Of a stretch of DNA of 64,000 nt, positions 6,847 through 64,000 are shown one piece after another. Position numbers and translations under genes: made by a program. Numbering within the stretch: position 1 is the stretch's first letter; each line of letters starts with the position of its first letter. The notes under the pieces were generated by a model that saw only the letters and a program-made list of their open reading frames with translations, did not search any database and had not been told where the DNA came from. Source of the DNA: Escherichia coli. GTDB taxonomy: Bacteria; Pseudomonadota; Gammaproteobacteria; Enterobacterales; Enterobacteriaceae. The stretch is from assembly GCA_025336685.1 (NCBI GenBank), contig GCA_025336685.1_4717.1, one strand, 5' to 3'.

Positions 6847-6928
6847 CACGTCCTCCTGAAAAAGAAAAAAGAAATACGGCATAAAGCCTACCCACACAAT
6901 GGTGGGTAGGCTAAGATCAACATCGATG

Positions 6929-13957: not shown

Positions 13958-13965
13958 CATAATAA

Positions 13966-14001
13966 CCCACCCTACTACCCCGTTAAGGGCGGTAGGGTGG
14001 G
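13966..14001. terminator. Hairpin at convergent junction (CCCACCCTAC...GTAGGGTGGG), likely bidirectional terminator
   Basis: About 10-bp GC-rich outer stem plus inner CCC/GGG stem; sits between convergent genes 13115..13957 (+) and 14009..14440 (-). Confidence 0.5.
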
Positions 14002-17965: not shown

Positions 17966-17967
17966 TT

Positions 17968-18594: not shown

Positions 18595-18600
18595 CATATT

Positions 18601-18633
18601 CCCTCCTCCTTCCCATGTTGGGTTGGAGGAGGG
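18601..18633 (+). terminator. Hairpin CCCTCCTCCTTCCC-loop-GGGTTGGAGGAGGG, member of a recurring hairpin family
   Basis: 14-nt arms with a central TT/TT mismatch, immediately after the stop of 17968..18594. Confidence 0.55.
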
Positions 18634-18647
18634 TTATGCCGTCAAGC

Positions 18648-18706: not shown

Positions 18707-19411
18707 TTAGGATGTAGATAATCTCGCGTACTTCTGGCGAACATGGTTCTTACGGCGAACTTCGTCATCCTCGTCACGCCATTCGAGGTAAGCAACGAAT
18801 CGACGTAACTGTGCTGCTGTCATCGTTGACGATCGGTCTTCTACATCTAGAACGACGTAACGAACGCCACCAACATCATCGCAATCAACGTAATTGAATA
18901 CCATAAGGCCATCACCGTATTCAACGACGGTAACTTCGAACCGTTTCTCGAACAAATAAAACAGTTCCGATTCGATGATCATCGGAATGACGCATATTTC
19001 AGCACGATCGAGGATTTCCATCATCACCCGTAACGCGCGAGGAGTATGGCGAGCGAACTGGCCGTTAAAACGTTGTCTCATTGCTTGTTCCACGCCATCT
19101 GTTTTTGTTCCAAACCAAGGACGTATTACAGATTTCGGTGGTGTAAGACGAAAGCGATATGCTTGTATAAACAACAGAATATCAGCGACGTTAGGAAATT
19201 CTTCCTGGTCTTCGTATATCTTGCGGATAATATCCGGAATCGTAACCATCAAGTATTTCTTATCGCCTCCCACTTTCTCGAGATTAGCAATATGTCCTTC
19301 TACTACCGGCTGGTAAACGAAATTATACCAATGACGGTATCTTGCAGCACGCTGGTAATTCGGGATAAAATTAAGAACAACATTCACTGCACGTTTTAAC
19401 GGGTTCATCAA
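18707..19411 (-). CDS. Hypothetical protein (234 aa)
   Basis: Long minus-strand ORF. Confidence 0.5.
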   Translation of the reverse strand: MMNPLKRAVNVVLNFIPNYQRAARYRHWYNFVYQPVVEGHIANLEKVGGDKKYLMVTIPDIIRKIYEDQEEFPNVADILLFIQAYRFRLTPPKSVIRPWFGTKTDGVEQAMRQRFNGQFARHTPRALRVMMEILDRAEICVIPMIIESELFYLFEKRFEVTVVEYGDGLMVFNYVDCDDVGGVRYVVLDVEDRSSTMTAAQLRRFVAYLEWRDEDDEVRRKNHVRQKYARLSTS

Positions 19412-21282: not shown

Positions 21283-22104
21283 ATGGAAAAAGTATTTGTT
21301 TGTAAGCTGTTTACTAACGGCAATAGCCAACCAATGTATCTGACCGATCCGGTTCTGGGTAATCGGAACAGTACTGTATTCAAAGAAGCTATCGAATACG
21401 CTAAAAATAAAGCCGTGAGAACACTGACGTCCGATGACTGTATCAATGGTATCACGTGGGCAGAGTTATTAGGTGATGCTGTTAGACACTTCGTTCGGGA
21501 TGCAAGAAAACAGGAAATCAGCCTCACGACCATTGTCGTGCGCGAAAACGCAGAAATTTTATCAAACGTTTTAGTTGATTTTAATGACGTTTACGTGTTT
21601 AATCCAGAGAACACTTTTGAACAATACCTTGCCGCCCTGAACAAACAGCTCGGTAAAGATGTTCATCCCGAATTCGCCAAGTTAACGTATCAAGTACTTT
21701 TTGACGACGTCGATCCGAATACGAAGATCAGCACCCGCTTAAACTGCCAGATAAAGAAATACGGATCGGTTCTTGCTACAGCGACACCTACCATCGATGG
21801 CGGTTATGATATCGAATTGGATTCTCCATTAAAAGAACAAGAACCTACTGGGGTTCGGGCAATACATCATACCCTCGTCGTTAAATCCGATGGTTGTGAT
21901 GAACATTACGCTATGACAAACGATGAAAATAATCACCGTTTAAGTCAAGCGATCGGTGTTCTACGTTATACCGAACCAACCACTGTAGACGATTATACTT
22001 CGACAACAACGCACACCACGTGTTTCATTTTCATTTATCCAAATGAAAGTGTGTACATTACTGACTGCTACGGCAACACGGTAGATAGCTTACGTCGTTA
22101 TTAA
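21283..22104 (+). CDS. Hypothetical protein (273 aa)
   Basis: ORF followed by a canonical terminator. Confidence 0.5.
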   Translation: MEKVFVCKLFTNGNSQPMYLTDPVLGNRNSTVFKEAIEYAKNKAVRTLTSDDCINGITWAELLGDAVRHFVRDARKQEISLTTIVVRENAEILSNVLVDFNDVYVFNPENTFEQYLAALNKQLGKDVHPEFAKLTYQVLFDDVDPNTKISTRLNCQIKKYGSVLATATPTIDGGYDIELDSPLKEQEPTGVRAIHHTLVVKSDGCDEHYAMTNDENNHRLSQAIGVLRYTEPTTVDDYTSTTTHTTCFIFIYPNESVYITDCYGNTVDSLRRY

Positions 22105-22110: not shown

Positions 22111-22138
22111 AGCCTGTCCTTCGGGGCAGGCTTTTATG
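22111..22138 (+). terminator. Rho-independent terminator (GCCTGTCC-TTCG-GGGCAGGC + TTTTAT)
   Basis: 8-bp GC-rich stem, TTCG tetraloop, T-tract; immediately after the stop of 21283..22104. Confidence 0.65.
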
Positions 22139-22205
22139 CTGTTAAATATCAGGAATAAGAATTAACAAAATAGGAAAATGGTGTGAATATAACACAAAGG
22201 AGGGA

Positions 22206-22334: not shown

Positions 22335-22748
22335 ATGTCTGCATTAGTGTATGACGAGAAATCGTCGAGGCCCCCGTCTTCACGAGGGCCAACACCTATG
22401 CGCGACTATTTACCATCTACGAAACAAAGGGTTATAAACATGAGCAATTTGAATGTTGAATTTACTTCAACAACGCCCGTCATGAATGGCGTTGGTACTG
22501 AAACTAAGATCGTATTAGAACCCATCCCGGGGTTACGTGATCTCGGTGATTTTTACCAACTGATGCCACGTATACGTAACGCCTTAAACAGTATCGATCT
22601 TGATTCTGATAAAGATTTCCAACACGATACAGAAAATACCGATCATGTGTTGCTACCATCAGGGATCGGAAAATTCACCTACACGCAAACATTGAAAGCC
22701 TCCGATGGTGAAATCCGTCGTTTTATTGTTGAAGTAGAAAGCGCATAA
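22335..22748 (+). CDS. Hypothetical protein (137 aa)
   Basis: ORF followed by a family hairpin at 22753..22784. Confidence 0.5.
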   Translation: MSALVYDEKSSRPPSSRGPTPMRDYLPSTKQRVINMSNLNVEFTSTTPVMNGVGTETKIVLEPIPGLRDLGDFYQLMPRIRNALNSIDLDSDKDFQHDTENTDHVLLPSGIGKFTYTQTLKASDGEIRRFIVEVESA

Positions 22749-22752
22749 AAAC

Positions 22753-22784
22753 CATCCTCCCAACCCGTAAGGGAAGGGAGGATG
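22753..22784. terminator. Family hairpin CATCCTCCCAACCC-GTAA-GGGAAGGGAGGATG at a convergent junction
   Basis: 14-nt arms with a single AA/AA mismatch; between convergent genes 22335..22748 (+) and 22802..23443 (-). Confidence 0.55.
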
Positions 22785-22801
22785 AAATATGCCGTTATAT
22801 G

Positions 22802-23443
22802 TTATTCAACAAATCCCGCGTTCAACAAATTGTCGTAAACACGATTAGCGACATCAACAGGAGAATGTGTGTTACTGGTGTCTATACACAACGTTTTCGC
22901 GTCGCCGAGATAGTCCATAAAATCCATGTAACGATAACGTCGTTTATTGAATGTCGCTTCATCGATGTTATCAAACATCTGATGTTTAGCGTGTCGAACA
23001 CGGAATCGCCTTAAATACGTAGGATAGTCAATATCCAGATAAACGTAGTAAGACGGCATGATAATCGACGGTAGGTTCGGCAACAACGCATCAAACAGCT
23101 TAACGTTGGCATCATTAACCTGATAAACGTACGTCGAAGCAATCGAACGATCGCTAAGCACAGTCTTCCCTTCGTTAAGGGCTGGATGAATCACCTTATT
23201 GAAGAGATGATTACGTTGCGACATCATCGCCAACAGTTCAGTTTCTGGATCGAATCTGTTCGTTGGCGTCTGATCTTCCAGGATAAGTTTACGAATCGCT
23301 TCTCCGTAGAGTGTACCACCGGGTTCACGTACGACGCAGACGTTGTTTAAACGACTGTGTAAAGACGAGATAACCGAACTCTTTCCTGAATAATCCAGAC
23401 CTTCAATAACGATATATTTATTACGAGACATTCCCCGCTCCAA
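22802..23443 (-). CDS. tmk: Thymidylate (dTMP) kinase
   Basis: N-terminal KYIVIEGLDYSGKSS P-loop, REPGGT and DRSI(A)S motifs match the bacterial Tmk pattern (KYIVIEGLEGAGKTT ... REPGGT ... DR). Confidence 0.75.
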   Translation of the reverse strand: MERGMSRNKYIVIEGLDYSGKSSVISSLHSRLNNVCVVREPGGTLYGEAIRKLILEDQTPTNRFDPETELLAMMSQRNHLFNKVIHPALNEGKTVLSDRSIASTYVYQVNDANVKLFDALLPNLPSIIMPSYYVYLDIDYPTYLRRFRVRHAKHQMFDNIDEATFNKRRYRYMDFMDYLGDAKTLCIDTSNTHSPVDVANRVYDNLLNAGFVE

Positions 23444-28677: not shown

Positions 28678-29766
28678 ATGAGCGATCTGGCAACAGACAA
28701 TCGCACAAAAGGGAGTCAGTTAGCTCCAGACAGCAACGTAAGCGTTTTCCGTATCTTTGCCTTGGGTACCGTTGCTGCCGACTTTTCCAATAAAAGTCTG
28801 GAGGAAGATCCTAACCAGGCGCTGGAGGTCTTTCTTGACGAGATGATGTCAGGTGCTGACGGGAAAGTTGAAGCGGCGGGAAGCGTGAAAGAAGTTAGTG
28901 CAACAGACGCTCAAGGGAACAGCTATACGGCAAAAGCGGCAACAACAACCAGCGTGCAGTGTTACTGGTTACCCTTTGGTAGTAATCGGATGACAGCGCC
29001 TAACTTGAGGAAAGGTCAGCGTGTGGTGGTCTGGCGTACTGCCGATGAAGAACAACTCTATTGGCAGCCCAAAGGAGGGGATAGTGAGCTGATGACCATG
29101 GAATCGGTTATCCTCACCGTCAGTGCACGTCCTAGCGCTAAGAAGGACCGTAAATCGATTTCAACGGAAGACTGCTATTACCTAATGGTTGATACCTTTC
29201 TTAAGAAAGCGGTTATCGGTACAAGCGCACAGCTTGGTGAAGTTACCCAAGTCTACATGGAACTTAATCTGGACGAGGGTTACTTACAGGTTGCGGACAG
29301 CGTCCATCAAAACCTACTATTGCTCCATTTTGTCGAGCATATGCTGCGATACCAAAACCAGGACGACAGCATTATCGACGTAACAAAAAAGAACATCACA
29401 TTCCAATGCGAGGATACGCTCAAAGCAATCGCTAAGAACGATATCCGAATGAAAGCAAAAAATATTTATACGGAATGTGAGAACTTTGAACGTACCAGCA
29501 AAACAGAAAGCGTTACGAGTCAGAATGTTTCTTTGAAATGCGATCGCTACACCGCGCAAGTATCAGGACAAACCATATTCAAATGTCCGAATACGGTATT
29601 CACCGGAGCCGTGAGTTTCACTGGTGAAGACGGAAACACGATGACATTGAACGGTAACTTCATACACGTCGCGGGATCTTGGCGTTCACCAAGCGGAACA
29701 AACGTATACACTCACGACCACGGTGGCGTTAAATCCGGTAGTAGTAGAACCGACCCGTTTCAATAA
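28678..29766 (+). CDS. Hypothetical virion protein, possibly baseplate central spike-like
   Basis: C-terminal THDHGG (HxH) resembles the iron-binding apex of gpV/gp5-type spikes; weak. Confidence 0.45.
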   Translation: MSDLATDNRTKGSQLAPDSNVSVFRIFALGTVAADFSNKSLEEDPNQALEVFLDEMMSGADGKVEAAGSVKEVSATDAQGNSYTAKAATTTSVQCYWLPFGSNRMTAPNLRKGQRVVVWRTADEEQLYWQPKGGDSELMTMESVILTVSARPSAKKDRKSISTEDCYYLMVDTFLKKAVIGTSAQLGEVTQVYMELNLDEGYLQVADSVHQNLLLLHFVEHMLRYQNQDDSIIDVTKKNITFQCEDTLKAIAKNDIRMKAKNIYTECENFERTSKTESVTSQNVSLKCDRYTAQVSGQTIFKCPNTVFTGAVSFTGEDGNTMTLNGNFIHVAGSWRSPSGTNVYTHDHGGVKSGSSRTDPFQ

Positions 29767-29789
29767 AACAAAAAAGAAATACAACATAG

Positions 29790-29824
29790 CCTCCTTCCCC
29801 GGCCTTGGTGGCTAGGGAAGGAGG
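29790..29824. terminator. Family hairpin CCTCCTTCCC-loop-GGGAAGGAGG at a convergent junction
   Basis: 10-bp perfect stem with a 15-nt loop, between 28678..29766 (+) and 29840..30277 (-). Confidence 0.5.
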
Positions 29825-29839: not shown

Positions 29840-30277
29840 TTAACGCACTGCGTTCTGGATGATTTCTTTTCCGATCTTAACCAAAGCAGGTATCTGCACA
29901 GCGGTTGCGCCTCGATGACGAAACGCGGTCGTTAACGCGGTATCGATACTCACAGCACGTCCGTGGAGACGATCGAAGTAGACTTGCGTGATTGCAGCGG
30001 CGTAATCCTTTCGCTGTTTCTTGGTTTGGTTTAACAGCGCCGCACTATGACTAACGATGAAGTAAGCGATTAAGAAGAACGCCGCCGACCGCGAACCGGG
30101 TAGAAAACCTTGTCGCTTAGGAAGCATCTCACAATCGCGAACAGTATTATCATTCGCGAGCTCATCCATGTCAACACAGCATAATTTTGCATAGGTGTGG
30201 AGATAGTGGGTAAAAGCTGAATTTAACATGTTTCTTTCCTCGATTACAATGAGTTCAATGTATAGCTTAAACGTCAC
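29840..30277 (-). CDS. Small hypothetical protein with one hydrophobic segment (start uncertain; internal ATG at about 30229)
   Basis: ORF with hydrophobic stretch AAFFLIAYFIVSHSAALL. Confidence 0.4.
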   Translation of the reverse strand: MTFKLYIELIVIEERNMLNSAFTHYLHTYAKLCCVDMDELANDNTVRDCEMLPKRQGFLPGSRSAAFFLIAYFIVSHSAALLNQTKKQRKDYAAAITQVYFDRLHGRAVSIDTALTTAFRHRGATAVQIPALVKIGKEIIQNAVR

Positions 30278-34926: not shown

Positions 34927-35709
34927 TCATGCGAACGTTTCTCCTGTAACGTGTTGTGGGCGTTGTAGCATGGTAGCATCCCATTGTACGATCCGGCTCC
35001 GGCTTACCCGCATCATGACGGATTCATCGTCAAGCCCCGGTTGCGCAACCGGCAACCAACGTTCGTTAAGCACCTTCGCTTCAACCCGTTTCTTGCGTGG
35101 GTTGTAACGCACCTCGCTAACCCAAGCGAATCCAAGCGGATGCACAACCCGTGGATAATACGTGCGAAGCAATTGATGCATCCGATCCAGTACCTCCAAG
35201 CTCGCATCGGCCATGTATGGTTTCACCATGGTAAGCTTTTTGGTGTAATACGTCCCAACGGTATGGTTCGCCCACCCGGGAAGCACGTGATGGAATCCTA
35301 CCTGTAATTGTGTATTGCCGTTCACCTTCAGCCAACCGTATTGTCCAGCCGCACGTCCCTCGTCAGTATCGATCCATGTAAGTATATCGATGAACGCACG
35401 ATCGGTGATCTCGATGCGTTCCACCCGTTCATCCAACGCACCACGTACCACGAATCCGCTCGCGCTCACCCGCGCAGGATGCTGGCTGCGATGCGCGTAC
35501 CAATTCTTGTTGCCGGTAAGCAGGTAAGGGTACGTGTGAGCACCCCGCCAAACAACCGTTCCGTTCGTCCCATCAACACAGTGTACATACATCCCATCTT
35601 GACCGTTGTTGTAGCATGCTACCTTCACGCATTCGTTTTGAACATCGCTCGGTAACGCCAGGTATTCACCTTCGGTAAACATGGTATCAAAAATGATTTC
35701 TTCGTTCAT
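34927..35709 (-). CDS. Paralogue family B protein (3 of 3), divergent N-terminus
   Basis: C-terminal VHPLGFAWVSEVRYNPRKKRVEAKV aligns with VHPLGYALVYDVRWNTNLQTVEVKI of 32870..33703. Confidence 0.55.
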   Translation of the reverse strand: MNEEIIFDTMFTEGEYLALPSDVQNECVKVACYNNGQDGMYVHCVDGTNGTVVWRGAHTYPYLLTGNKNWYAHRSQHPARVSASGFVVRGALDERVERIEITDRAFIDILTWIDTDEGRAAGQYGWLKVNGNTQLQVGFHHVLPGWANHTVGTYYTKKLTMVKPYMADASLEVLDRMHQLLRTYYPRVVHPLGFAWVSEVRYNPRKKRVEAKVLNERWLPVAQPGLDDESVMMRVSRSRIVQWDATMLQRPQHVTGETFA

Positions 35710-35810: not shown

Positions 35811-36415
35811 GTGAAAGGATTTGCATTAAAGCAAGGGTAATTGTTTTGTTTTAAGAAGGGATGGATGATAGCGGTATCTGAAAGGAGAAGGATTTTAAGG
35901 AAGGTCTTGATTGAAGTAAGTGAAGAGGATGATTATTTCGGTTTAAGTAAGTAGGTAAGTTATCGTGTTATTGTTTTTTGTCTTAATGGTTTTATCGTTT
36001 TATCTGTTGTTTATATAAATCAAATTAAATTATAAAGTCAGTTAAGATGTTGGTTAACAACGTTCAACTCAAAAAACCATTTGTGATACTCTTCTTCACG
36101 TTGTTCATCAGAGTATCTCGTCTATACTCATTGCATTCGTATACGACATAACCGTTATACGCTAACGCTACGCTTATAGCTTGATAACTCTAAGGATAAA
36201 AACATAAACTCGCTTCGCTCGTTTAGTTTTTCTTTTTCTTAGAGTTATCCTGTTGCTCGTCTCTAAAGGACTTCGCTCCTCCCCCGTCCCCCGAAGGGGC
36301 CGAGGTCGTGGAAATTTTACTTTCCAAATACATTTACAACATCTGTAAACTTTTACTCCAGGTACTTAATCTTATCATTAGAAATTATAAAGAGAAGAAT
36401 AAACACAAACATAAA

Positions 36416-36447
36416 CCTTCCTCCAACCCAACAGGGAAGGAGGAAGG
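36416..36447 (-). terminator. Family hairpin CCTTCCTCCAACCC-AACA-GGGAAGGAGGAAGG after the stop of 36461..37354
   Basis: 14-nt arms with one mismatch; on the minus strand it is followed by a T-rich run. Confidence 0.55.
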
Positions 36448-36460: not shown

Positions 36461-37354
36461 TTATTCGGAAACGTTGTAACCGAACACCGCTTTACCGTAG
36501 GTGTGAGTACCGTCAGCTAATGACAGCACCAGCACGTGGTTGTACGTAGCGTTAACACCCTTGTCGGTAGACTCGGTGGTAGCACCGTTGTAGACGAAAG
36601 TAGCCGTTTGCAGATTGGCTTTCAGCTCGGTGATGATCTCATCACCCACACCCGTCTGCTCTTTGATCAGCGTGGTCAGGTTACCCGCCAGGCTTTCATC
36701 GATCTTGGTTTCATCACTGGTAATAGCTTGTAAACCTGCGGTGTAGGTGCTGAAGTCTAACGGATAGGTTAACAGACGCGCTGAGGTCTTGGTACCATCG
36801 CCTTCATCAACGTAGGTTAACTTACCCAGGTTGGTAACCTTGATGATGTTAGCCAGATCCAGCGTGGTGTTATAAACTTTAACTTCAACGGAACCGTACC
36901 AAGCCAGCGAATCTTCTTTGGCCTGCAGGGTGATCGTCTGGATACCATGATCGTCGAAGGTAACCGGCGTAGCTAACGTATCGGCTTTGATGTCTTTCGT
37001 TTTATCTAAGAACTTCTCACCGGAAGGCGTGATCATACCGTAGCGTTGAGCTACAAGGTCAACCACGTCACCAATAGTGGTGTTAGCATTAACGTTAACG
37101 CGTACGGCGATCTTCTGGAACCACTTAGCCAGATCCAGACGATGATAGGTAACATCGCGGTCATTGAAGTAAGGTGTACCTTCACCAGGGCTAAGCGTTA
37201 AAGTTGCATCTGGAGCAGAATCGCTTTTGGATTTAAGAACGTATTTAAGGTCGGTGGGTTTGAAGTTGGCACCAGTGTCGGCGTTGAGTGTGTTAATCTC
37301 ATCAACGATAAGTTGCCAAGGTGTTTTTAAAGTAAGTGATACTTGAGCTGTCAT
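36461..37354 (-). CDS. Putative virion structural protein, paralogue family C (YxDR ... AW(T/Y)GSV motifs)
   Basis: Shares motifs with 37498..38040, 48415..49320, 50237..51088 and 51099..52046; codon usage biased towards preferred codons. Confidence 0.55.
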   Translation of the reverse strand: MTAQVSLTLKTPWQLIVDEINTLNADTGANFKPTDLKYVLKSKSDSAPDATLTLSPGEGTPYFNDRDVTYHRLDLAKWFQKIAVRVNVNANTTIGDVVDLVAQRYGMITPSGEKFLDKTKDIKADTLATPVTFDDHGIQTITLQAKEDSLAWYGSVEVKVYNTTLDLANIIKVTNLGKLTYVDEGDGTKTSARLLTYPLDFSTYTAGLQAITSDETKIDESLAGNLTTLIKEQTGVGDEIITELKANLQTATFVYNGATTESTDKGVNATYNHVLVLSLADGTHTYGKAVFGYNVSE

Positions 37355-37497: not shown

Positions 37498-38040
37498 ATG
37501 GCCTTAGACTTTAACAAAGCAGCGAAATCCCTTCTGCTTGATCTGATCAACACCAAAGCAACCCGCGCACTGTCCGAAGAAGAACTGCAGTTCGGTACTC
37601 CGGCGGCATCTTCCGAAAATGCTAAGAACACCGTTATCCAGCTGAATGCTGCGGCTGAAGCAGAAAACCTGCAGGGTACTCAGCAGTTCTACTACGATCG
37701 TCTGGCTCTGTCTGACGTTTTCGCTGATGTAACCAGCGATGTTACTTTCGAACTGCCGCACGGTACTGACAGCATTAAGGCTTCTGAGCTGGTAAGCAAG
37801 CTGGTCACCAAGTTCGGTCTGGCTTCCCTGACCGGTGAAATCAATGAAGAAACCTTCCAGCTGTCCGCAGGTACTGTTGGTCAGGTAACCCTGACTGCGA
37901 TCGAGGGTGGTATGGTATATACCGGTACTCTGCAGGTTGCCCTGACCTACGCAGCAGCACCGAAAGACAATCTGGCAACCGTTCTGGCGGATAACGTAGC
38001 TGATGGCTTCGTGAAACCTGAAGTTGCTGTCGTTGGCTAA
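37498..38040 (+). CDS. Small putative major virion/decoration protein, paralogue family C, with strongly biased codon usage
   Basis: FYYDRLALSDVF and GMVYTGTLQVAL motifs; heavy use of CTG, GGT, ACC, GCT, GAA codons; SD AGAGGA upstream; apparently monocistronic. Confidence 0.6.
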   Translation: MALDFNKAAKSLLLDLINTKATRALSEEELQFGTPAASSENAKNTVIQLNAAAEAENLQGTQQFYYDRLALSDVFADVTSDVTFELPHGTDSIKASELVSKLVTKFGLASLTGEINEETFQLSAGTVGQVTLTAIEGGMVYTGTLQVALTYAAAPKDNLATVLADNVADGFVKPEVAVVG

Positions 38041-38239: not shown

Positions 38240-38272
38240 CCCCTCCTCAGCCCTTATCGGGTTGGGGAGGGG
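38240..38272. terminator. Family hairpin CCCCTCCTCAGCCC-loop-GGGTTGGGGAGGGG (imperfect) at a convergent junction
   Basis: Between 37498..38040 (+) and 38336..38971 (-); two mismatches in the 14-nt arms. Confidence 0.45.
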
Positions 38273-38335: not shown

Positions 38336-38971
38336 TTATTCAACACTGAAACCGTTCAAACAGATGGCTTCGTAACGTTTACGTTCACGGCGTTTGCGTG
38401 CCTGCCAACCGTAAATGAACTTCTCGTCTTTCTCACGACGTTCCGCTAATTCGATGTAATAGGTGCTCTGCATGTCCAGCATTGCATCGATGAGATAATC
38501 CTTACCGGTTGCGCCACGCTTAGCGATGTAGGCATCAAGAGCCGCCAGTGTTTTGGGACCCATTGCGCCATCAGCGTCGATATTTTTCCAGTAAGTTTGG
38601 CGGTTGTTCATGACGTTCAGATAACGCTGAAGGTTCTTAACCGGTACGGTTTTGCCTGCGTTGATACCCAGGTCAAAGAGACGATCAGCCAAGAACACGG
38701 AACGTTTCATGACCTCATCAAGCTTCATCTTATCCCAGAAGTGGGTCTTGTAGATGAAGAACGCCATTTCCGTGGTAAGGTTACGCATATTACCGTCCCA
38801 CCCGAATTTCGTTTTCAGCGTGGTTTTGTACTGATCCGCAAGCGCTTTCGTAATGCCGTGGTTCGTGATCCCACCAGAGTCATCGGGATCGTCGACGTAA
38901 CCTGCTTCGATGCTAGTTTTATCACGAATGATAAATTCGCAAGTAAAATCTTTTTCAGTAATCTTGGCCAT
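38336..38971 (-). CDS. Endolysin: GH108-family lysozyme with C-terminal peptidoglycan-binding (PG_binding_3-like) domain
   Basis: N-terminal IEAGYVDDPDDSGGITNHGIT matches the GH108 E...GGY.DDP.D.GG.T..GIT signature; C-terminal half resembles PG_binding_3. Confidence 0.7.
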   Translation of the reverse strand: MAKITEKDFTCEFIIRDKTSIEAGYVDDPDDSGGITNHGITKALADQYKTTLKTKFGWDGNMRNLTTEMAFFIYKTHFWDKMKLDEVMKRSVFLADRLFDLGINAGKTVPVKNLQRYLNVMNNRQTYWKNIDADGAMGPKTLAALDAYIAKRGATGKDYLIDAMLDMQSTYYIELAERREKDEKFIYGWQARKRRERKRYEAICLNGFSVE

Positions 38972-47082: not shown

Positions 47083-48363
47083 ATGTATACATTGGTAAAA
47101 ACTTACGGATTACCCGTAGGTTCTGGCACGGCCTGGACAGCACTTGAGGCGGGTGAAAGTGTCCTGAGTACGTTGTTCTCAGCGTATCAAAAACTCAAGA
47201 TCCAGGTTCATGAAAGCTATGCTGACCAGCAACAAGTTATTGATCTGTACACATTTCAATCCGAGCTTCAAAACAGCAATGACACGCTCAATGCGTGGTT
47301 GAAAGCGAAATCGGATGCACATACCAACCTTCGAGGACAGCCTGGTGAGCTGTCGATTAAAACCCACAAGCTTTATTGCCATGACGTTATTACCGTAGGC
47401 TTTCTCCCTAAAGTCGGTAATAGTGGTTATCATCCGAGCAATGCGATCCCTGAGTCGGAACGTACCGATATCCTGTTGACGAAAGCGAATACGAATTACG
47501 AAAATATCGGCAAACATTGCTTGTTCACCGTAGGCGGTTATATTCATCCTCATGTTTACGGTAAAGACGTTGGCGTCTATATCCAGGGTGGGTTCGAGAC
47601 AGCACAGCGTAGCCAAGAAAACGATATCGGCATGATTGATTTTAGCCGTATCGGGAGTTTGGAAATCCACGCCATCACAGAAGAGATGATTGCTGATTCC
47701 ACGAAGCTCTTGCCGTATAAGGACGAGATGTACTTACGGCTACCACGTAAGGTCGCCGAAGATGAAACCGTTGCGCTGGTGTTCGGGGGATATCTACACC
47801 TTCTTGACGATTGTTACACGATCGTTAGTGACACGACGGCAAAAATAAACTGCAGAAACATGTTTCTGTATGAAAGATACTTCCGCTCCCGCAAATACCT
47901 TGATTTAACGTCTCTTGGTATTCTGTTGAACGAAGAAGACCCGCAGTCCGATATTGTTGCCAATCGTTTACTGTCTGATAAGACTTTAAAAGCATGGGTG
48001 ACGCATCCCTGCAGTTTCTGGGTGTATATCAAAGCAACATCGATTCAGGTTACACAAGAACCTTTACCACGAAGTGGCGTACCAGGACAATATTTCTTAG
48101 GTAAGAAACCGGAAGGACTGATTCGAGCCGATCTCGGTGAGTTACCGGCCTACGTGCAGACCTATGAAAAACCGTTATGGGTACTTCACTCACGCTGGGG
48201 GCTTCGTAAGAACATGTTGTTTGAAAACACATTGTACAAACATACACGCGTTAAGCGGCTTAACGATACGCCTTATCTTCACCAGGTCTGGTTGAAAACG
48301 CATGCGACGTTGCAGACAGTACATAAGCTCGAATTGATCGATTCCAGTCAGAAAAACAAATAA
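47083..48363 (+). CDS. Hypothetical protein (426 aa), likely tail-associated
   Basis: Divergent from the fibre gene; followed by a family hairpin. Confidence 0.5.
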   Translation: MYTLVKTYGLPVGSGTAWTALEAGESVLSTLFSAYQKLKIQVHESYADQQQVIDLYTFQSELQNSNDTLNAWLKAKSDAHTNLRGQPGELSIKTHKLYCHDVITVGFLPKVGNSGYHPSNAIPESERTDILLTKANTNYENIGKHCLFTVGGYIHPHVYGKDVGVYIQGGFETAQRSQENDIGMIDFSRIGSLEIHAITEEMIADSTKLLPYKDEMYLRLPRKVAEDETVALVFGGYLHLLDDCYTIVSDTTAKINCRNMFLYERYFRSRKYLDLTSLGILLNEEDPQSDIVANRLLSDKTLKAWVTHPCSFWVYIKATSIQVTQEPLPRSGVPGQYFLGKKPEGLIRADLGELPAYVQTYEKPLWVLHSRWGLRKNMLFENTLYKHTRVKRLNDTPYLHQVWLKTHATLQTVHKLELIDSSQKNK

Positions 48364-48373
48364 ACAAACATAA

Positions 48374-48405
48374 CCCTCCTCCTTCCCTTACGGGTTGGAG
48401 GAGGG
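48374..48405. terminator. Family hairpin CCCTCCTCCTTCCC-TTAC-GGGTTGGAGGAGGG at a convergent junction
   Basis: Arms identical to the 18601 copy; between 47083..48363 (+) and 48415..49320 (-). Confidence 0.55.
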
Positions 48406-48414
48406 AATATGCTG

Positions 48415-49320
48415 TTATGCCACGTATAACGTTAGATAACCGTCGATGAGCGTATTCATAACACTGAGTTGAAGTACAACAGCTTTACGAGCGTCTGTAC
48501 GTACACCAAATGGTAGTGTTTTGAAATGCTCTGGATCGGCTATTACTCTCGCATTCTGCAAGTTGAGCGGTCCAGGCGTTGCCGACAATACCCAGCGATC
48601 GTTGGCCGTAAGACCATCGATCTCTTCAGAGAGACCCAATTGCAGCATGTTCATTTCTGCAATTAGCGCCTCTGATTGCATATCACCTGAGGTTAACGTA
48701 TACCCATCAGTAAGTGACGCTAGAACATCATCAGACATGAACCAGTTGTACGAAACAATAGCGCCCGGGAGTTTATCACTATCTCGATCGATGAGATAAT
48801 TCAACCCAGCCAACATATTGTTGCGAATGAGGTTGTTGAGGTCGTTATGTCCTGAAGTTAACTCAACAAGTAATTGACCAACCCATACTTGGTTACCAGG
48901 TTTAGGTGTTATCGCAACATGTATCGGTGATTTGGATTTATCCAGATCCGCGTCGACAATCTCGGTTTTATTGAGAAGGATACCGTACGTTGATGCTAAG
49001 ACAGGTAATATCTCAGAGACCTTGGTTAGTGTATCTAAGGTTTCGATCTCGATGGGCCAGCGGTGCTGTCCGCCAGGCCAAATACCCAGTTTACCAAGAT
49101 CGACGCGGTTATAATAGATGTCGACAGAGTTCACCAGCCCTGAACCCGGTTGGGGATGCACGGTTAACTTGCTGTTACGCTTGTACCCTGTGCTTTCAGA
49201 AGCCTCACCGATAACCAGTTTATCCAGCGTTACGCCTCGAGCGTCGAAATCGCTATGCTTTCGAATCAGCCGAAAGAGGATTTCTTTCGATTCTAACCCT
49301 AGGATTTCACTGTACTCCAT
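48415..49320 (-). CDS. Putative structural protein, paralogue family C
   Basis: IYYNRVDLGKLGIW and QVWVGQLLVEL motifs align with the other family members. Confidence 0.5.
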   Translation of the reverse strand: MEYSEILGLESKEILFRLIRKHSDFDARGVTLDKLVIGEASESTGYKRNSKLTVHPQPGSGLVNSVDIYYNRVDLGKLGIWPGGQHRWPIEIETLDTLTKVSEILPVLASTYGILLNKTEIVDADLDKSKSPIHVAITPKPGNQVWVGQLLVELTSGHNDLNNLIRNNMLAGLNYLIDRDSDKLPGAIVSYNWFMSDDVLASLTDGYTLTSGDMQSEALIAEMNMLQLGLSEEIDGLTANDRWVLSATPGPLNLQNARVIADPEHFKTLPFGVRTDARKAVVLQLSVMNTLIDGYLTLYVA

Positions 49321-52093: not shown

Positions 52094-54574
52094 TTAAGCG
52101 TCCTCGATAGGCAAAGGTTTAACAATCAAACGATTGAGCGGATTCGATAGACGCATACTGACAGGCTTATACGCAACATGATTCGTCTCACTTAGAACCG
52201 CTGACCTGAAACGACCATTCACCTGTTTGTAGATTGGATCTATCCAAAGACCTTGAAGGTCGCGCTTACGGAAACGTTGTTCGAACGGTTTGATCGGGTT
52301 TATGGTCAGCCCATGCAGCGACTCCGACAGTAAACGCTCACGAAGGTCGCGTGGTGCCCGACCCGGGAACGGTGCAAGCCACAAACCATCGAGTGGGTTT
52401 TTACGGAAACGTAACGAGATGGGATCACTGATGACTTGTGCCCAATATTGCGTACTGAATCGAACCGTTTGGGTATTCTCGTAACCGCTACAGTCACACC
52501 AGGTTGGTTTCGGAGGTGCTTCCAAACTTTCAACCACCGATTCGCGCCAGTTCGTCATCGGGTTGTTATCATGTACGAATTTGATAACTTCCGTAGCCTG
52601 GTTATCCGTATCATGAACGTTTGCCTGTGCCCAGTCTTCCCACAGTTCTTCACTACCACTTACTAAACTCGAACCAAGACGAACGGCGATTTTGTTTAGT
52701 GGTTTGATTGGATCACTGTTGATTGTCTGGATAAAATGGATGGTGTAACTACTCAATGTCTTAAGCAGCTGCAGCATTCCGTATTGAATATCCTTAAGAC
52801 TGGTGACATCTTCCAAATCTTGACCGGTGGCCTTTGTGAAGATATCGAGAGCCAGAATTCCCGCCTCTTCTTGACTGATTGCGTCAAGCTCCCAATCCAT
52901 CGCTAAGAACCATTCCTTGTAAAGCTGCCCAATACCGAAGTCGACACCAACATCCATGTAAAAGTTTTCAACGATGGCTTCAGCCATACCTCGAGCTTGA
53001 TAATGCTCTTGGAGCTGGTACATGAACTGATGACGACGCCAGCCCTGGTAGATCTCGGTAACGACGTTGAGAAACTCTTCAGTACTGACGACCGGACGCA
53101 ATGTTACTTGCTTATCCAAACACCACCAGATCAGTTTATCGGGAATGATAGCGGGATCGGTAATGCTACGGAGATGGTCGAATGTCGGTAGCGTTAACAC
53201 CCTGACATGGTTAGCATGGATCTTAGGTACTTCAATCAGCGTCATGCCCATCGAATAGTTCAGCAAATACAAGAACAGCTTGTATGCATCTTTCATCGAC
53301 ATCGTCATGGTATCACCCGTCACCGGGTTGGTTGTCGTTAACCGTGACTGGTACATGCCTATAGCGCTAAGATGAATCCATTCGTTCAGTAGGAAATCAT
53401 ACTTAGGATACAATTCACTGTCTGTAAGGTCTTCCGCTTCACTTTCCAACACCTTGGTCGTTAAGGTGTTGTTGTCATGCATCGACATTTTCTCTATCGT
53501 GCGGTTAAGCTCGGTATAATACTCCGCTTCGTTATCCCGCGCTAAAGGGAACTGTTGCTGCATCACGGTGGTGACCTTACGCCTTACCGTGCCGTTGCCG
53601 ACGATCTCTTGAAGGTTAAGTGGTTTACGCTCCATGTAAACGGTAGGTTTTAACGTCTGAGGTATCTCGGAAGCGTCTTGTTTGATCGAGAACGCACCGA
53701 TTGGAATTCCACGTTCGGTTAATACCTTTTGAATGAGCTTATCGTAGTTTTCCGTTCTGCCCATGTTTCTTTCAACGTAAGCAATGTTACGATAAAACCA
53801 GAGCATTTGAGATTCGGTCATGTATCGCTCGAATCGATCAAGACCTTGATGGCTTGCCAGATAACTCCAGATATGGAAGCTATGGGCATAATGGGTATGA
53901 CAGTTTTCCCAACGAATACCTTTTATCATCTCAGGTATTTGTGTGAATAGAATGGCGTATAACGCAGGCCAATGAAGCATATCGACGCTTTCATACGCCG
54001 GGTGTTCCCAACGTCTAAAGTAATCATCGATTTCTTGCTGTAAGCGTGGAATAAGATTGGCCTCGCGCGATTCAACCTCTCGTGTATCGTACCAGAGAAT
54101 CTCATGATTGCGTGCCGCAATTGCTTTCTCGATATCGATGGGGTTAAGGATACCCAAGATCAACATACGTTGTTCTGGATACCGCGCAATTAAACGATTG
54201 AAATAATCTCCGCCGTACGCGTATTCCCTTGCTGTCATGCGATGTCGTAACATGTTTTCCTTGGTGAACTCGATCTCTTCGAGCGTATCCAGGGAATTTA
54301 CGGTCATCATTGTCTGACAAGGATGATACTCGCCAGCGAGATTCATGTAGTATAACCACGTGCGTGGGTCGTCCCCGACGGCCATCTGGTAGACTTCGGA
54401 AACCTTGAGGTTTAACCGTTCTGCCGTGATGTCGCTTTTAATAATCAGGGTGTCCGTTAGACGCTGCACGCTTTCCGAATAAAGCTGATAGTCAGTGTTG
54501 GACACGATCGGTCCTCCAAGGAGCCAGTGTAAATGAACGATATAAATAAAGGGCGCGTCGCCCTCGAACGTCAA
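52094..54574 (-). CDS. Large hypothetical protein (up to 826 aa) with C-terminal tandem peptide repeats; 5' end uncertain
   Basis: The track start at 54574 is a TTG overlapping the divergent gene; first in-frame ATG is near 54385. C-terminus has 2-3 repeats of (D/N)PI...RFRK..L.GLW. Confidence 0.5.
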   Translation of the reverse strand: MTFEGDAPFIYIVHLHWLLGGPIVSNTDYQLYSESVQRLTDTLIIKSDITAERLNLKVSEVYQMAVGDDPRTWLYYMNLAGEYHPCQTMMTVNSLDTLEEIEFTKENMLRHRMTAREYAYGGDYFNRLIARYPEQRMLILGILNPIDIEKAIAARNHEILWYDTREVESREANLIPRLQQEIDDYFRRWEHPAYESVDMLHWPALYAILFTQIPEMIKGIRWENCHTHYAHSFHIWSYLASHQGLDRFERYMTESQMLWFYRNIAYVERNMGRTENYDKLIQKVLTERGIPIGAFSIKQDASEIPQTLKPTVYMERKPLNLQEIVGNGTVRRKVTTVMQQQFPLARDNEAEYYTELNRTIEKMSMHDNNTLTTKVLESEAEDLTDSELYPKYDFLLNEWIHLSAIGMYQSRLTTTNPVTGDTMTMSMKDAYKLFLYLLNYSMGMTLIEVPKIHANHVRVLTLPTFDHLRSITDPAIIPDKLIWWCLDKQVTLRPVVSTEEFLNVVTEIYQGWRRHQFMYQLQEHYQARGMAEAIVENFYMDVGVDFGIGQLYKEWFLAMDWELDAISQEEAGILALDIFTKATGQDLEDVTSLKDIQYGMLQLLKTLSSYTIHFIQTINSDPIKPLNKIAVRLGSSLVSGSEELWEDWAQANVHDTDNQATEVIKFVHDNNPMTNWRESVVESLEAPPKPTWCDCSGYENTQTVRFSTQYWAQVISDPISLRFRKNPLDGLWLAPFPGRAPRDLRERLLSESLHGLTINPIKPFEQRFRKRDLQGLWIDPIYKQVNGRFRSAVLSETNHVAYKPVSMRLSNPLNRLIVKPLPIEDA

Positions 54575-57439
54575 ATGAGCAATAATGACGTTGCGAAGGC
54601 ACTCATGAACAAATTTGTCGCTCCTGCTCCGCAGTCACGTCTTTATAATACACGTGATGCGGAAGGAGCGAGCGGTCGTTTCGGGTTAGTTGTTCCCGAC
54701 CAAATGACGATGAACACGGTTACGCGTGCGACCGCGACAAACATCGAGGATAATAAAAACATCCTCGAGTTGTTCCCTGAACTTAAACGCGTGATGCAGA
54801 TCTACGTTGCCGCGTTGACGAACCCTAACGATCTTAAGACGGTCGAGATGTTTATCGATAGCGAAGATTTCCCGGGTAGGGTCGCAGAAATCGTTCAGCC
54901 GATGATCGATACCATCGACACGCATTTTAAGAATATCTATAAAATAAAGACGCTTATCCCTCGTATCATCGAAGACGTCTTCTTTATCAAGGGCAGTTAT
55001 AACTTCGTTGTTCTGCCAGAAAGCACGCTCGACCGCGCTATTAATGGTAACGGTCAACTGAAACTTGAAGAATACGGGTTTAGAGACAACCATTTCGCAA
55101 GTTGGGGGCTTTTAGGTAACGACAGTCGCAAACGTCACGAAAATCAATTACCTTCGACGGTCTCGATGGAAGATTATTTCTCGGGCGTTAATGAAACCAT
55201 ACCGTACGATCCCGTTGTCCGTATAGACAGCATTAAGTTTACCAATACCCTGCTTCGTGATAAGGACGGTAAATTCATTGAAGCGAAGATCGATATTCCG
55301 GATATGGTTACGGTTGTCGATAACCCAGATATTCTCCGCATGCCTATTTTGCATCAACGTCGAGCAGCGACAGCGGTGCAACGCGCGTTACGCACGAACA
55401 CGTTAGGAGGTAGTGGTTTGGTAACACTGTCAGGTGATCCAACCCTAACCGCTAACCGACGTGAGCTGTCGCAAGAACAGGTTAACGAGATTTGGAATAA
55501 ACTCAACATCCAACGTCACACCAAGGTATCTCCCGTTTACGCGCTGGCAACCCCAGATACGCTTGATCGTCAAAGCGTTGGCCATCCTGGTGTGATGCAC
55601 GTACCACCTGAGGCATTAGAACCCGTACATGCACCAGGTGATCCGGAGAACCATATCGGGTATTTAGTTCAGTTGGATGAGTTTGGTTATCCGGTGCGTT
55701 TGGTTGAGGATGCTGCGTATTACAAGCAGTTGGAAGGTCGGTTGTCGAAGATCACCGCGGATATCGCGGGTACGTCAAGCAACGGCATGGCGAGCGAGAT
55801 GATCGGTGCGGCCAAGAACATGATCCAAGGTACGTCGTGTAATCAAGTAGACATGTCGGCCTTCGTGTCATCGTACGAATCATTGATGCAACGCTACATC
55901 GTTGAACGAATCGTCAACGGTTATCTTGGTAGTGCGGTGGAGATCGGTGCGACATCATCGTTTTACCTATCGATGCTTGCTCGCAGTCTCGCCCACAAGC
56001 AGACCCGTGTTTTGTTTATTCCTCGAGAGATGGTGACATACATCGCTTATGAATACAACAAATACGGTATTGGTCGTTCACTGCTTGAAAGTACGAAGAT
56101 GATCTCGTCGCAACGAGCCATGCTCATGGTTCAAGAACTGATGGCGAAAATCAAAAGTTCGTTGAACTATACGACGCTAAGTGTAATGCTTGAAGATACC
56201 GACAGAAACCCGGTCGATACCGTCGAACAGGCACTACATAGTTTCGCTCGCGTCTACCAGTCTGGTTTCCCGTTGGGTGAAACTAACCCAATGGACATCA
56301 TCAACGCATACGAACGAAGCTCGATTCGATTGAAGGTTGAGGGGAATAACCCACGCTTCCCGAAATTGAATACGGACGTCAGCGTTGAGCAGCGTAACTA
56401 TCAGTCTCCTGATAATGAATTGATGGATCGTTACCGTCGTGACCACTTCATGGGTTTGGGAGTTTCTCCAGAGATTATCGATACTTCCTACCAATCTGAA
56501 TTCGCGGCTTCTGTGATTACCGCTAACGCGATGCAAGAGAAGCAGTTCACGGTTTGTCGTGAGGTTATCACGAACGGATTAACTGATCACATCAAGAAGT
56601 ACACGGCTTACAGTCCTGTATTGTTGACGTCGCTACGAAACACGGTTCGTGCGAACATGTCTAAGCTCTCCCAAGCACAATTGAAACAGCTTTTTGGTAG
56701 CGATTTCGAAAACGGCGTTATTCGTAACGTTAATGCTTATCAGGAGATCGACGACCAGTCAGCAACAATGGACCTGGATTATTCTAAACCGGAAGTTCAG
56801 GAAGTTATTGCCGATGCTTATGTATCCATGTTCTTAAACAGTCTGCAGGTGCGTTTACCGAACAGCAATGCTCGCCGCCTTGAAGATCAGGTACGTGAAT
56901 ATAATCAGTACAAGGAAGCGATTACAGCGCAACTTGATGATTATTTAACGCCTGATTACGTCATGGGTCTGGGTGGGGTTGATGAAACAACACTGCAGAT
57001 GATCCGTGCATGCATTATTGGTACCGCGATGCGTACATGGGCAAAAGAGAACAACTTCAATCAGGAGCTGGCTGATCTCTTCAGTCTCGACGATAAGAAG
57101 AATGCCGTGCAAGATTGGAAACGTGCATCCATGGAACATATTGAAATCATGGGTAAATGCATGGGTGATTTTGCATTGTATATTCAGAATCTGACGAAGA
57201 AGATTGAAGAGAAGATGGGAGATCAAGCACAGGACGGCAGCGTTTCATCTGATGGTTCTTGGTCGTCTGATTCAAGTAGTGATACCGGTTCTTCTGATGA
57301 CTTTGGCGGTGATGATTTCGGGGATACCGATTTCGATACCGAAACGATGGAGGAAACCTCAACAGAGGAGACAACCACGTCTGAGGATACGACTACCGAT
57401 ACAACGTCAGAAGACGAGACTTCAGGTGATATTGTCTAA
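54533..57439 (+). CDS. Large hypothetical protein (968 aa) with highly acidic Asp/Glu/Thr/Ser-rich C-terminal tail
   Basis: Strong SD AAGGAG 9 nt upstream of ATG 54533; C-terminal about 70 aa is acidic low-complexity. Confidence 0.55.
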   Translation: MNDINKGRVALERQMSNNDVAKALMNKFVAPAPQSRLYNTRDAEGASGRFGLVVPDQMTMNTVTRATATNIEDNKNILELFPELKRVMQIYVAALTNPNDLKTVEMFIDSEDFPGRVAEIVQPMIDTIDTHFKNIYKIKTLIPRIIEDVFFIKGSYNFVVLPESTLDRAINGNGQLKLEEYGFRDNHFASWGLLGNDSRKRHENQLPSTVSMEDYFSGVNETIPYDPVVRIDSIKFTNTLLRDKDGKFIEAKIDIPDMVTVVDNPDILRMPILHQRRAATAVQRALRTNTLGGSGLVTLSGDPTLTANRRELSQEQVNEIWNKLNIQRHTKVSPVYALATPDTLDRQSVGHPGVMHVPPEALEPVHAPGDPENHIGYLVQLDEFGYPVRLVEDAAYYKQLEGRLSKITADIAGTSSNGMASEMIGAAKNMIQGTSCNQVDMSAFVSSYESLMQRYIVERIVNGYLGSAVEIGATSSFYLSMLARSLAHKQTRVLFIPREMVTYIAYEYNKYGIGRSLLESTKMISSQRAMLMVQELMAKIKSSLNYTTLSVMLEDTDRNPVDTVEQALHSFARVYQSGFPLGETNPMDIINAYERSSIRLKVEGNNPRFPKLNTDVSVEQRNYQSPDNELMDRYRRDHFMGLGVSPEIIDTSYQSEFAASVITANAMQEKQFTVCREVITNGLTDHIKKYTAYSPVLLTSLRNTVRANMSKLSQAQLKQLFGSDFENGVIRNVNAYQEIDDQSATMDLDYSKPEVQEVIADAYVSMFLNSLQVRLPNSNARRLEDQVREYNQYKEAITAQLDDYLTPDYVMGLGGVDETTLQMIRACIIGTAMRTWAKENNFNQELADLFSLDDKKNAVQDWKRASMEHIEIMGKCMGDFALYIQNLTKKIEEKMGDQAQDGSVSSDGSWSSDSSSDTGSSDDFGGDDFGDTDFDTETMEETSTEETTTSEDTTTDTTSEDETSGDIV

Positions 57440-57468
57440 ACGGACGTAAAAAAATAACACATAGTTAA

Positions 57469-57503
57469 CCTTCTCCCCAACCCGATGAGGGAAGGGGAGA
57501 AGG
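57469..57503. terminator. Family hairpin CCTTCTCCCCAACCC-GATGA-GGGAAGGGGAGAAGG at a convergent junction
   Basis: 15-nt arms with an AA/AA mismatch; between 54533..57439 (+) and 57516..57797 (-). Confidence 0.55.
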
Positions 57504-57515
57504 GCTATGCGCTAT

Positions 57516-57797
57516 TTAATTATTTCGAGAGGTTAACCACGATTCAATTGCGGTGAGGTTGCATTTCAGTTCACGCCAACTAGGGTGTGGTGGGATCACA
57601 GCACCTTTGTCAATTACGGTTAGCTGAACCTGGTATTTCTGTTGCATACGTGCTACCGTATCGCTTACCGAGAGGAAAAGCTGGTAACGTTCGTACGCTG
57701 TCAGTTCGCGGTCCTGATAAACCGCGTAGGTGGCTAACGTAACTTCGCGTAAGTCCTTTGCGTCCACAGAGACGGTGATGAGTTTATATTGACTCAT
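57516..57797 (-). CDS. Small hypothetical protein (93 aa)
   Basis: ORF bounded by the hairpin and the upstream gene. Confidence 0.45.
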   Translation of the reverse strand: MSQYKLITVSVDAKDLREVTLATYAVYQDRELTAYERYQLFLSVSDTVARMQQKYQVQLTVIDKGAVIPPHPSWRELKCNLTAIESWLTSRNN

Positions 57798-63895: not shown

Positions 63896-64000
63896 AAATT
63901 TTTTCTATTCGCAACGATAAACGGCATAAATCTCCCCCAACCCTTACGGGCTGAGGGAGGCTGACTTATGTATCACGGTGCCGGATGAATGTCCGCAATG

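Follow-up and report, generated by a model that had tools for sequence, protein, structure and literature searches.

The Focal Locus and Its Closest Relatives

The stretch of DNA analysed here, which is 64 kb long and is referred to below as the window, carries at positions 48374-48405 a hairpin with the sequence CCCTCCTCC-TT-CCC-TTAC-GGG-TT-GGAGGAGGG. It is placed between two converging genes, with the stop of 47083..48363 (+) on one side and the stop of 48415..49320 (-) on the other. As the first-pass annotation of this DNA had expected from its palindromic form, the hairpin is predicted to fold equally well as RNA from both strands, at -26.7 kcal/mol (+) and -26.5 kcal/mol (-). The conserved flanks of the hairpin, CATA upstream and TATG downstream, were missing from that annotation. 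They are distinct from the stop codons of the neighbouring genes: the TAA of the plus-strand gene lies at 48361-48363 versus 48369-48372 for CATA, and the stop of the minus-strand gene at 48415-48417 versus 48408-48411 for TATG. The whole element is delimited as follows.

48369..48411, both strands: focal bidirectional terminator (predicted), with CATA at 48369-48372, the hairpin at 48374-48405 and TATG at 48408-48411

The 5 kb around this site match Escherichia phage vB_EcoM_Goslar at 93.7% identity; this chimallivirus of E. coli is a jumbo phage of 237 kb that forms a nucleus. The window is distinct from Goslar itself, being 93-97% identical to Goslar and to the IMG/VR contigs 3300011560_000001 and 3300045988_173921. 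In the GenBank record of Goslar, the ortholog of the focal hairpin (27746-27777) is labelled 'putative transcriptional terminator, -15.49', and the orthologs of the hairpins at 13966, 29790, 38240 and 22111 of the window are also marked as putative terminators. According to the Goslar paper, those terminators are ARNold predictions; the repeat family described below goes unmentioned there.

A Family of Pyrimidine-First Hairpins

Ten sites in the window had been listed as copies of a family of CT/GA-rich hairpins, and all ten do hold a hairpin with a 5' arm made up almost wholly of pyrimidines and a 3' arm almost wholly of purines. A scan for stems of at least 10 pairs with at most 2 mismatches, a loop of 3-7 and a 5' arm of at least 78% pyrimidine yielded 11 such pyrimidine-first hairpins in the window, compared with a mean of 0.13 and a maximum of 1 in 30 dinucleotide-preserving shuffles. 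The mirror class, in which the purine arm comes first, had one member in the same scan. The eleventh hit, at 28775, is a weak hairpin within a gene and is unrelated to the family; consequently, the list of ten is complete for the window. The predicted RNA stabilities of the ten hairpins range from about -23 to -33 kcal/mol (z = -4.4 to -7.1), and none of 200 shuffles was as stable as the family hairpins. Besides the focal copy, the members are the following.

5734..5778, both strands: predicted bidirectional terminator; hairpin 5741-5772 (CCCTCTCCC TT CCC TGAT GGG TT GGGAGAGGG), -27.4 kcal/mol, TATG box on each side; convergent junction 4105..5724 (+) / 5779..6897 (-)
13958..14001: copy with hairpin 13966-14001 (CCCACCCTACTACCC CGTTAA GGGCGGTAGGGTGGG), -27.3 kcal/mol, TATG box on the minus side only, plus side TTTATTTG; convergent junction 13115..13957 (+) / 14009..14440 (-); Goslar ortholog 232609-232644, an annotated terminator
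18595..18642, both strands: predicted bidirectional terminator; hairpin 18601-18633, -26.3 kcal/mol, TTATGCCGT at 18634-18642 (+), TATG box on the minus side, weak match to the phiKZ model; convergent junction 17962..18594 (+) / 18707..19411 (-)
22744..22791, both strands: predicted bidirectional terminator; hairpin 22753-22784 (CATCCTCCC AA CCC GTAA GGG AA GGGAGGATG), -23.5 kcal/mol, TATG boxes on both sides; convergent junction 22335..22748 (+) / 22802..23443 (-)
29785..29824: copy with hairpin 29790-29824 (CCTCCTTCCC CGGCC TTGGT GGCTA GGGAAGGAGG), -29.1 kcal/mol, TATG box on the minus side, TTATA on the plus side; convergent junction 28678..29766 (+) / 29840..30277 (-); Goslar ortholog 11186-11220, an annotated terminator with inverted centre
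36410..36447, minus strand: unidirectional copy; hairpin 36416-36447, -25.1 kcal/mol, TTTATG box only on the minus (transcribed) side; directly after the stop of 36461..37354 (-) and followed by ~700 nt of noncoding sequence
38240..38272: copy with hairpin CCCCTCCTCAGCCC TTATC GGGTTGGGGAGGGG, -33 kcal/mol, plus-strand RNA fully paired through G-U pairs, plus side TCTTATACG, TATG on neither side; between 37498..38040 (+) and 38336..38971 (-); Goslar ortholog 17603-17637, an annotated terminator
57460..57509, both strands: predicted bidirectional terminator; hairpin 57469-57503 (CCTTCTCCCC AA CCC GATGA GGG AA GGGGAGAAGG), -26.6 kcal/mol, TATG boxes on both sides; convergent junction 54533..57439 (+) / 57516..57797 (-)
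63921..63970, minus strand: copy with hairpin 63932-63959, -24.7 kcal/mol, followed by TTATGCCGT at 63929-63921 (-), with TTATG also on the plus side; downstream of the ortholog of the minus-strand major capsid protein gene (Goslar_00040/00041 as context)

The characteristic stem is built in two tiers. Its 12-14 pairs comprise an outer part of 9-10 bp and an inner CCC/GGG clamp, separated by a 2x2 internal loop of AA/AA or UU/UU. This combination of clamp and mismatch, previously described as the usual design of the family, occurs at six of the ten sites. The copy at 63932 is a seventh site with the clamp but has an AA/CT loop, and those at 13966, 29790 and 38240 depart from the design, with a single mismatch or G-U pairs at the corresponding position. 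Pairing is kept over at least 13 different arm sequences, C/T changes being matched by G/A changes. Arm complementarity was taken directly from the per-site hairpin calls; in the family alignment the longer copies were out of register, and consequently no pair counts were run on that alignment.

The arms are near-perfect polypurine/polypyrimidine palindromes in the DNA as well, and the phage encodes SbcC-like and RuvC-like proteins. Both points would suit a double-stranded or cruciform DNA site bound by a phage protein during replication, packaging or genome organisation in the phage nucleus, but this is the least probable of the explanations considered here. The copies at 38240 (plus) and 63932 (minus) are fully paired only as one-strand RNA, through G-U pairs, and the flanking box is asymmetric at unidirectional sites. 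Moreover, the arm sequences vary freely while pairing holds, unlike a sequence-specific DNA-binding site.

The absence of a canonical U-tract from most copies, already pointed out in the first-pass annotation, was borne out by a consensus scan for U-tract terminators in 40000-59999 (at least 5 T in 8 after the stem), which left the hairpins at 48374 and 57469 uncalled. U-tract terminator-like sites showed no enrichment in this region (24 vs 18.0 +/- 4.3). A search of the whole window against Rfam gave 0 matches at gathering score.

Gene Context

According to the ORF map and Goslar's annotation, every one of the ten copies occupies intergenic DNA directly 3' of a stop codon. Eight of them (5741, 13966, 18601, 22753, 29790, 38240, 48374 and 57469) occupy the short gap between convergent stop codons, and eight of the nine convergent junctions in the window have a copy. 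The ninth, at which 8087..8716 (+) and 8619..9407 (-) overlap, is without one. The copies at 36416 and 63932 are found between co-directional minus-strand genes, and none in the window lies in a divergent promoter region. The proposal that these hairpins mark convergent junctions describes the majority of copies and fails for these two. When the same scan was applied to the whole Goslar genome, about 30 family members were found, of which 17 were at convergent junctions, about 12 at co-directional ones and 1 in a divergent region. Family members are not specific to convergent junctions: unidirectional copies make up 2 of the 10 in the window and, in Goslar, about 12 of 30.

The Flanking TATG Box

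Almost every copy has (G)CATA(A) upstream and (T)TATG downstream. Along the transcribed strand, the hairpin comes first and (T)TATG-Y-Y-G-T-T after it; 49 of 53 flanks place the G of TATG 5-9 nt beyond the end of the stem. Of the 18 flanks in the window that are transcribed, 14 have TATG at most 12 nt downstream of the stem, compared with a background rate of 2.2% (p ~2e-20). The four flanks without it are 13966+, 29790+, 38240+ and 38240-; three of these keep only TTAT and one keeps nothing. The longer string TTATGYYGT occurs 8 times in the window, where 2.7 are expected, and none of 100 shuffles reached 8.

The presence of the box depends on the direction of transcription. In Goslar, where the transcription context of each flank was hand-coded from the annotation and the scan, the box accompanies 34 of the 46 flanks into which an annotated gene is transcribed and 4 of the 14 others (Fisher p=0.004). 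The 4 box-bearing flanks of the latter group, into which no annotated gene is transcribed, run counter to a terminator reading. Of 12 co-directional junctions in Goslar, 11 have the box downstream and 4 have it on the opposite side.

The box is also found after hairpins that do not belong to the CT/GA family, and the functional class is consequently wider than the repeat family. Two such hairpins of the window are the following.

22111..22142, plus strand: non-family hairpin of the same terminator class; hairpin 22111-22133 (GAGCCTGTCC UUCG GGGCAGGCTT), -19.2 kcal/mol, then TTATGCTGT (22134-22142); directly after 21283..22104 (+); Goslar ortholog 3508-3527, an annotated terminator
6876..6912, minus strand: non-family hairpin of the same class; hairpin 6885-6912 (AGCCTACCCAC ACAATG GTGGGTAGGCT), then TTATGCCGT on the minus strand (6884-6876); between co-directional minus-strand genes

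The (T)TATGYYGT box appears to take the place of the U-tract. Consequently, the RNA processing or stability elements and protein-binding sites that had been offered as a fallback are not needed to explain why the U-tract is missing.

Comparison with Mapped Terminators of phiKZ and 201phi2-1

The most informative comparison is with two phages in which transcript ends have been mapped. ONT-cappable-seq of phiKZ revealed a conserved motif, 5'-BCCYCCCCHWWDGGGRRGGBYTTATKYYGT-3', in 61 terminators, i.e., in most of the intrinsic ones, together with six regions, each between convergent genes, in which termination is bidirectional (Putzeys et al. 2024, microLife; PMC10914365). For 201phi2-1, 132 termination sites were reported, and the commonest motif (n=59) strongly resembles that of phiKZ (PMC11512511). 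Eight selected 201phi2-1 terminators, spanning the sequence motifs of that phage, cut downstream reporter expression in vivo in a terminator trap, an assay performed with the host RNA polymerase in uninfected cells (PMC11512511).

Entries in Table S4 of the phiKZ study share their layout and nearly the same flanks with the focal site (e.g., ...AAACATAATGCCCTCCCgcaatGGGAGGGCTTATGCTGTTAAG). One example from the table reads AAACATAAT-GCCCTCCC-gcaat-GGGAGGGC-TTATGCTGTTAAG, compared with acaaacataa-CCCTCCTCC...GGAGGAGGG-aatatgctgttatg at the focal site. The features held in common with the phiKZ motif are a GC-rich hairpin whose 5' arm is a pyrimidine stretch of the CCYCC type and whose 3' arm is a GGRGG purine stretch, a YTTATKYYGT box directly after the stem, ACATAA upstream, the lack of a long U-tract, and a location at gene 3' ends, back to back between convergent genes. 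However, the phiKZ stems consist of 7-9 uninterrupted pairs, whereas those described here have 12-14 pairs in two tiers. The host is E. coli rather than Pseudomonas, and the 3' ends, mapped in phiKZ, are predicted here. The likeness to 201phi2-1 is similar in kind, as its motif A is phiKZ-like, its A/B combination forms an elongated hairpin, and 15 of its sites are bidirectional (PMC11512511). The elements also resemble bacterial Rho-independent terminators, in that a GC-rich stem-loop would lie a few nucleotides before the RNA 3' end and a single palindrome could serve both directions. They differ from them in having a TATG-containing box instead of a U-tract and in the strict segregation of purines and pyrimidines between the arms.

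A covariance model was prepared with 12 mapped phiKZ terminators as its input and an 8-bp stem specified by hand. Two earlier phiKZ alignments were not used for it: one of 35 sequences, in which MAFFT misaligned the 3' arms (RNAalifold found no pairs), and one of 20 sequences, which mixed two stem registers. In the 64 kb window, the focal hairpin was the top match (24.1 bits, E=0.002), followed by the copy at 5741 (E=0.039) and by the non-family site 22102-22146 (18.1 bits, E=0.11). The copy at 18601 and opposite strands reached E=1.7-5.5, and the other six sites fell below the threshold. The weak scores of the other copies can be attributed to their stems, which are nearly twice as long as the 8-bp stem of the model and are interrupted. 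A sequence-only profile derived from the 35-sequence alignment likewise matches the focal site and 5741. As judged from these models, membership in the phiKZ type appears clear for only some copies.

In the full-length table entries of phiKZ, the mapped 3' ends and the G of TATG are about -2 to +4 nt apart, positions that are approximate because letters are lost in some table rows and nanopore ends are good to a few nucleotides. Taken alone, the ONT 3' ends of phiKZ do not tell termination apart from exonuclease trimming up to a stable hairpin. The hairpins might instead protect or process RNA 3' ends: the polymerase would read through, and 3'-to-5' exonucleases or an endonuclease would then trim the RNA to the hairpin, which would stabilise the upstream mRNA. 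The unusual stability of the hairpins (about -23 to -33 kcal/mol) and the missing U-tract would agree with such a role. This explanation is nevertheless unlikely. Trimming would leave ends at the base of the stem, whereas the phiKZ ends are several nucleotides downstream, at the box, and a direction-dependent box 5-9 nt beyond the stem is unneeded for blocking an exonuclease. In addition, the eight 201phi2-1 terminators selected for assay lowered reporter expression in vivo (PMC11512511). A stability or processing role could possibly coexist with termination.

Occurrence in Other Phages

The two-tier form of the hairpin is present in three Goslar-like genomes. More distant uncultivated contigs, mostly of jumbo size (~100-270 kb), carry uninterrupted CCTCCTACCC-GNRA-GGGTAGGAGG hairpins, several of which are flanked by GCATA...TATGYCGT. 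In Erwinia phage Ea35-70 (positions 1-50000), a TTATGCCG box follows hairpins of the reverse, purine-first arm order, such as GGGGAGG-gaaa-CCTCCCC-ttatgccgt. Arm order is not essential to box-bearing hairpins, to judge from the sequences of Ea35-70. Examples of the purine-first hairpin with its box in this phage are located at the following positions.

5446-5465, Ea35-70: purine-first hairpin and box
6052-6077, Ea35-70: purine-first hairpin and box
27578-27603, Ea35-70: purine-first hairpin and box
49563-49580, Ea35-70: purine-first hairpin and box

In Salmonella phage SPN3US and Bacillus phage AR9, the hairpins are followed by ordinary T-tracts, and phage EL shows no box.

Purine-first hairpins were also observed in the window between co-directional genes, at 3545-3565, 32529-32555, 33742-33767 and 44797-44823. 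Examples are AGGGCGGGA-GAT-TCCCGCCCT and GGAAAGGTGGG-CAGAA-CCCACCCATCC. In Goslar, the hairpin of the 44797 type has a T-rich tract after it on the transcribed strand; ordinary U-tract terminators thus appear to coexist with the TATG-box type.

Inversion of Hairpin Centres

When the focal hairpin is compared between the window and Goslar, the outer arms are identical and the 14-nt centre differs at 6 positions. After reverse-complementing, the two centres show 0 differences (TTCCCTTACGGGTT vs AACCCGTAAGGGAA; window 48383-48396 vs Goslar 27755-27768). Within 120 nt of focal flanks, only 6 differences separate the two genomes. The same exact inversion is found between the Goslar hairpin at 48107 (centre 48116-48129) and its ortholog in contig 3300045988_173921, and the copies at 5741 and 29790 differ from those at 224384 and 11186 in Goslar by an inversion together with two loop changes. 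The inverted unit is the 14-15 nt centre, comprising the internal loop, the CCC/GGG clamp and the loop, in genomes that are otherwise 93-97% identical. At another site, both arms are replaced in a compensatory way, from CCCTCTCCC to CCCTCCTCC. The centres thus flip between the inverted arms, and either orientation seems to be acceptable, which fits an element that needs to work from both strands.

Enterobacteria harbour REP/BIME elements, many similar imperfect palindromes in 3' intergenic regions and in both orientations, which can stabilise the upstream mRNA. The hairpins described here share the number, the imperfect palindromic form, the location and the two orientations of these elements. 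They could be imagined as REP-like palindromes, selfish or spread by recombination, that are tolerated in intergenic DNA and have no dedicated role in transcription. Identical copies exist (four 32-mers in Goslar are the same), and the replacement of whole hairpins and the exact inversion of centres among genomes that are 93-97% identical suggest exchange from copy to copy. On balance, however, such an origin is very improbable as the explanation of the family. The hairpins are phage-encoded and shorter than REP/BIME, and no transposase, of the Y1 (RAYT) type or any other, is named among the 249 annotated genes of Goslar, an annotation in which most genes are hypothetical proteins. Every copy is found directly after a stop codon and none in the divergent promoter regions of the window. 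Furthermore, the flanking box tracks the direction of transcription, and the motif is kept in phiKZ despite proteins that are only weakly similar.

Interpretation and Proposed Mechanism

The hairpins with their boxes are probably intrinsic terminators of a Goslar-like nucleus-forming jumbo phage, of the type conserved in phiKZ. This reading is supported by their position, by the direction-dependent box and by the similarity in sequence and structure to the mapped terminators of phiKZ and 201phi2-1. The same evidence argues for the earlier suggestion that the copies between convergent genes act as bidirectional terminators. By homology, RNA synthesis would end at these sites in this phage, and either the virion or the non-virion polymerase would be the one that responds to them.

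In the proposed mechanism, the directional unit would consist of a very stable GC-rich hairpin and a (T)TATG-Y-Y-G-T box whose G lies 5-9 nt past the stem. By the time the hairpin forms in the nascent RNA, the polymerase would be 5-9 nt ahead of it on the UAUG box, where the transcript would be released. A single palindromic copy that is flanked by a box on either side could in this way stop both converging transcripts; copies between co-directional genes have the box downstream only.

At late promoters, the non-virion RNA polymerase of phiKZ recognises nothing more than 5'-TATG-3', read on the non-template strand; transcripts begin at the G, and the motif is held in a pocket of the beta-like subunit GP123. 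In a composite of terminator and promoter, the TATG after the stem would be a late start site of this polymerase, from which the following gene or an antisense RNA would be transcribed. In phiKZ, some late start sites do lie 5-26 nt downstream of terminator boxes (P016, P049 and P054 in the part of the promoter table that was covered). A composite is nonetheless highly improbable. Six hairpin-plus-TATG strings occur in the phiKZ terminator table, but only one promoter row corresponds to them, with a start 26 nt further on, and none of the start sites within the same part of that table coincides with the G of a box. In a convergent junction, a start at the box would give only antisense RNA. The idea of the box as a late promoter was rejected as unsupported by the phiKZ start sites in that part of the table. 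Separately, a role of the hairpins as mRNA export signals bound by the nucleus-associated RNA-binding protein ChmC was considered and found to be unsupported, as the eCLIP peaks of PhiPA3 lie near start codons and no motif was detected in them.

Within the terminator reading, the shared tetranucleotide allows a more tentative suggestion. Since the box contains the TATG of the promoter, and since the phiKZ 3' ends map at or next to its G, the elongating polymerase might perhaps re-capture this TATG, in the register that it uses at initiation, and pause where the hairpin acts, so that the box would serve as a polymerase-specific substitute for the U-tract. If true, such a pause would account for the conservation of the box among phages of Pseudomonas, Escherichia and Erwinia, even with the arms reversed as in Ea35-70. 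No paper linking the terminator box to the promoter tetranucleotide was found in the literature searched, and no late-promoter motifs were recognised by eye in the upstream regions of Goslar.

Elements of this kind have already been reported from phiKZ and 201phi2-1, and in Goslar they are annotated in part. The two-tier stem with its AA/AA or TT/TT loop, the exact inversion of the centre and the box behind the purine-first hairpins of Ea35-70 have not been described before. Chimalliviruses transcribe their genomes within a protein-walled phage nucleus, using two non-canonical multisubunit RNA polymerases. The occurrence of essentially the same hairpin and TTATG in phages of E. coli, Pseudomonas and Erwinia, but of ordinary U-tracts in the relatives SPN3US and AR9, points to a signal that is read by the phage's own machinery rather than by that of the host. 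For practical purposes, the element offers a simple rule for annotating operon ends in Goslar-like genomes and a compact set of candidate bidirectional insulators. The TATG box also provides a concrete mutational target for termination assays with purified phiKZ polymerase.

Other Features of the Window

Downstream of the copy at 36416, a gap of ~700 nt of noncoding sequence (35710-36415, minus; Goslar 14972-15825) is gene-free in the Goslar annotation too. It contains a GC-rich UUCG hairpin at ~36280-36305 and a TTATGTCGT box at 36151-36143; an Rfam search of 35.6-36.5 kb gave no match. The string TATATTAC, which is the core of the phiKZ early promoter, is located at 35800-35807, where it precedes the start of 34927..35709 by about 90 nt, and is not significantly enriched in the window. 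The gap may be the site of a noncoding RNA or of an early promoter region.

Sigma-70-like promoter matches are depleted in 40000-59999 (13 vs 27.3 +/- 5.2 in shuffles), as would suit a phage that is transcribed independently of the host RNA polymerase. A run of 14 A lies at 18648-18661, starting 15 nt after the predicted terminator at 18601-18633, where the Goslar GenBank record starts and ends. Finally, Goslar_00233 is one gene of 2142 nt, and the corresponding part of the window (3584-5724) has two overlapping ORFs in different frames, 3584..4141 and 4105..5724. This split implies a 1-nt indel, which could be either a real frameshift or pseudogene or a sequencing error.
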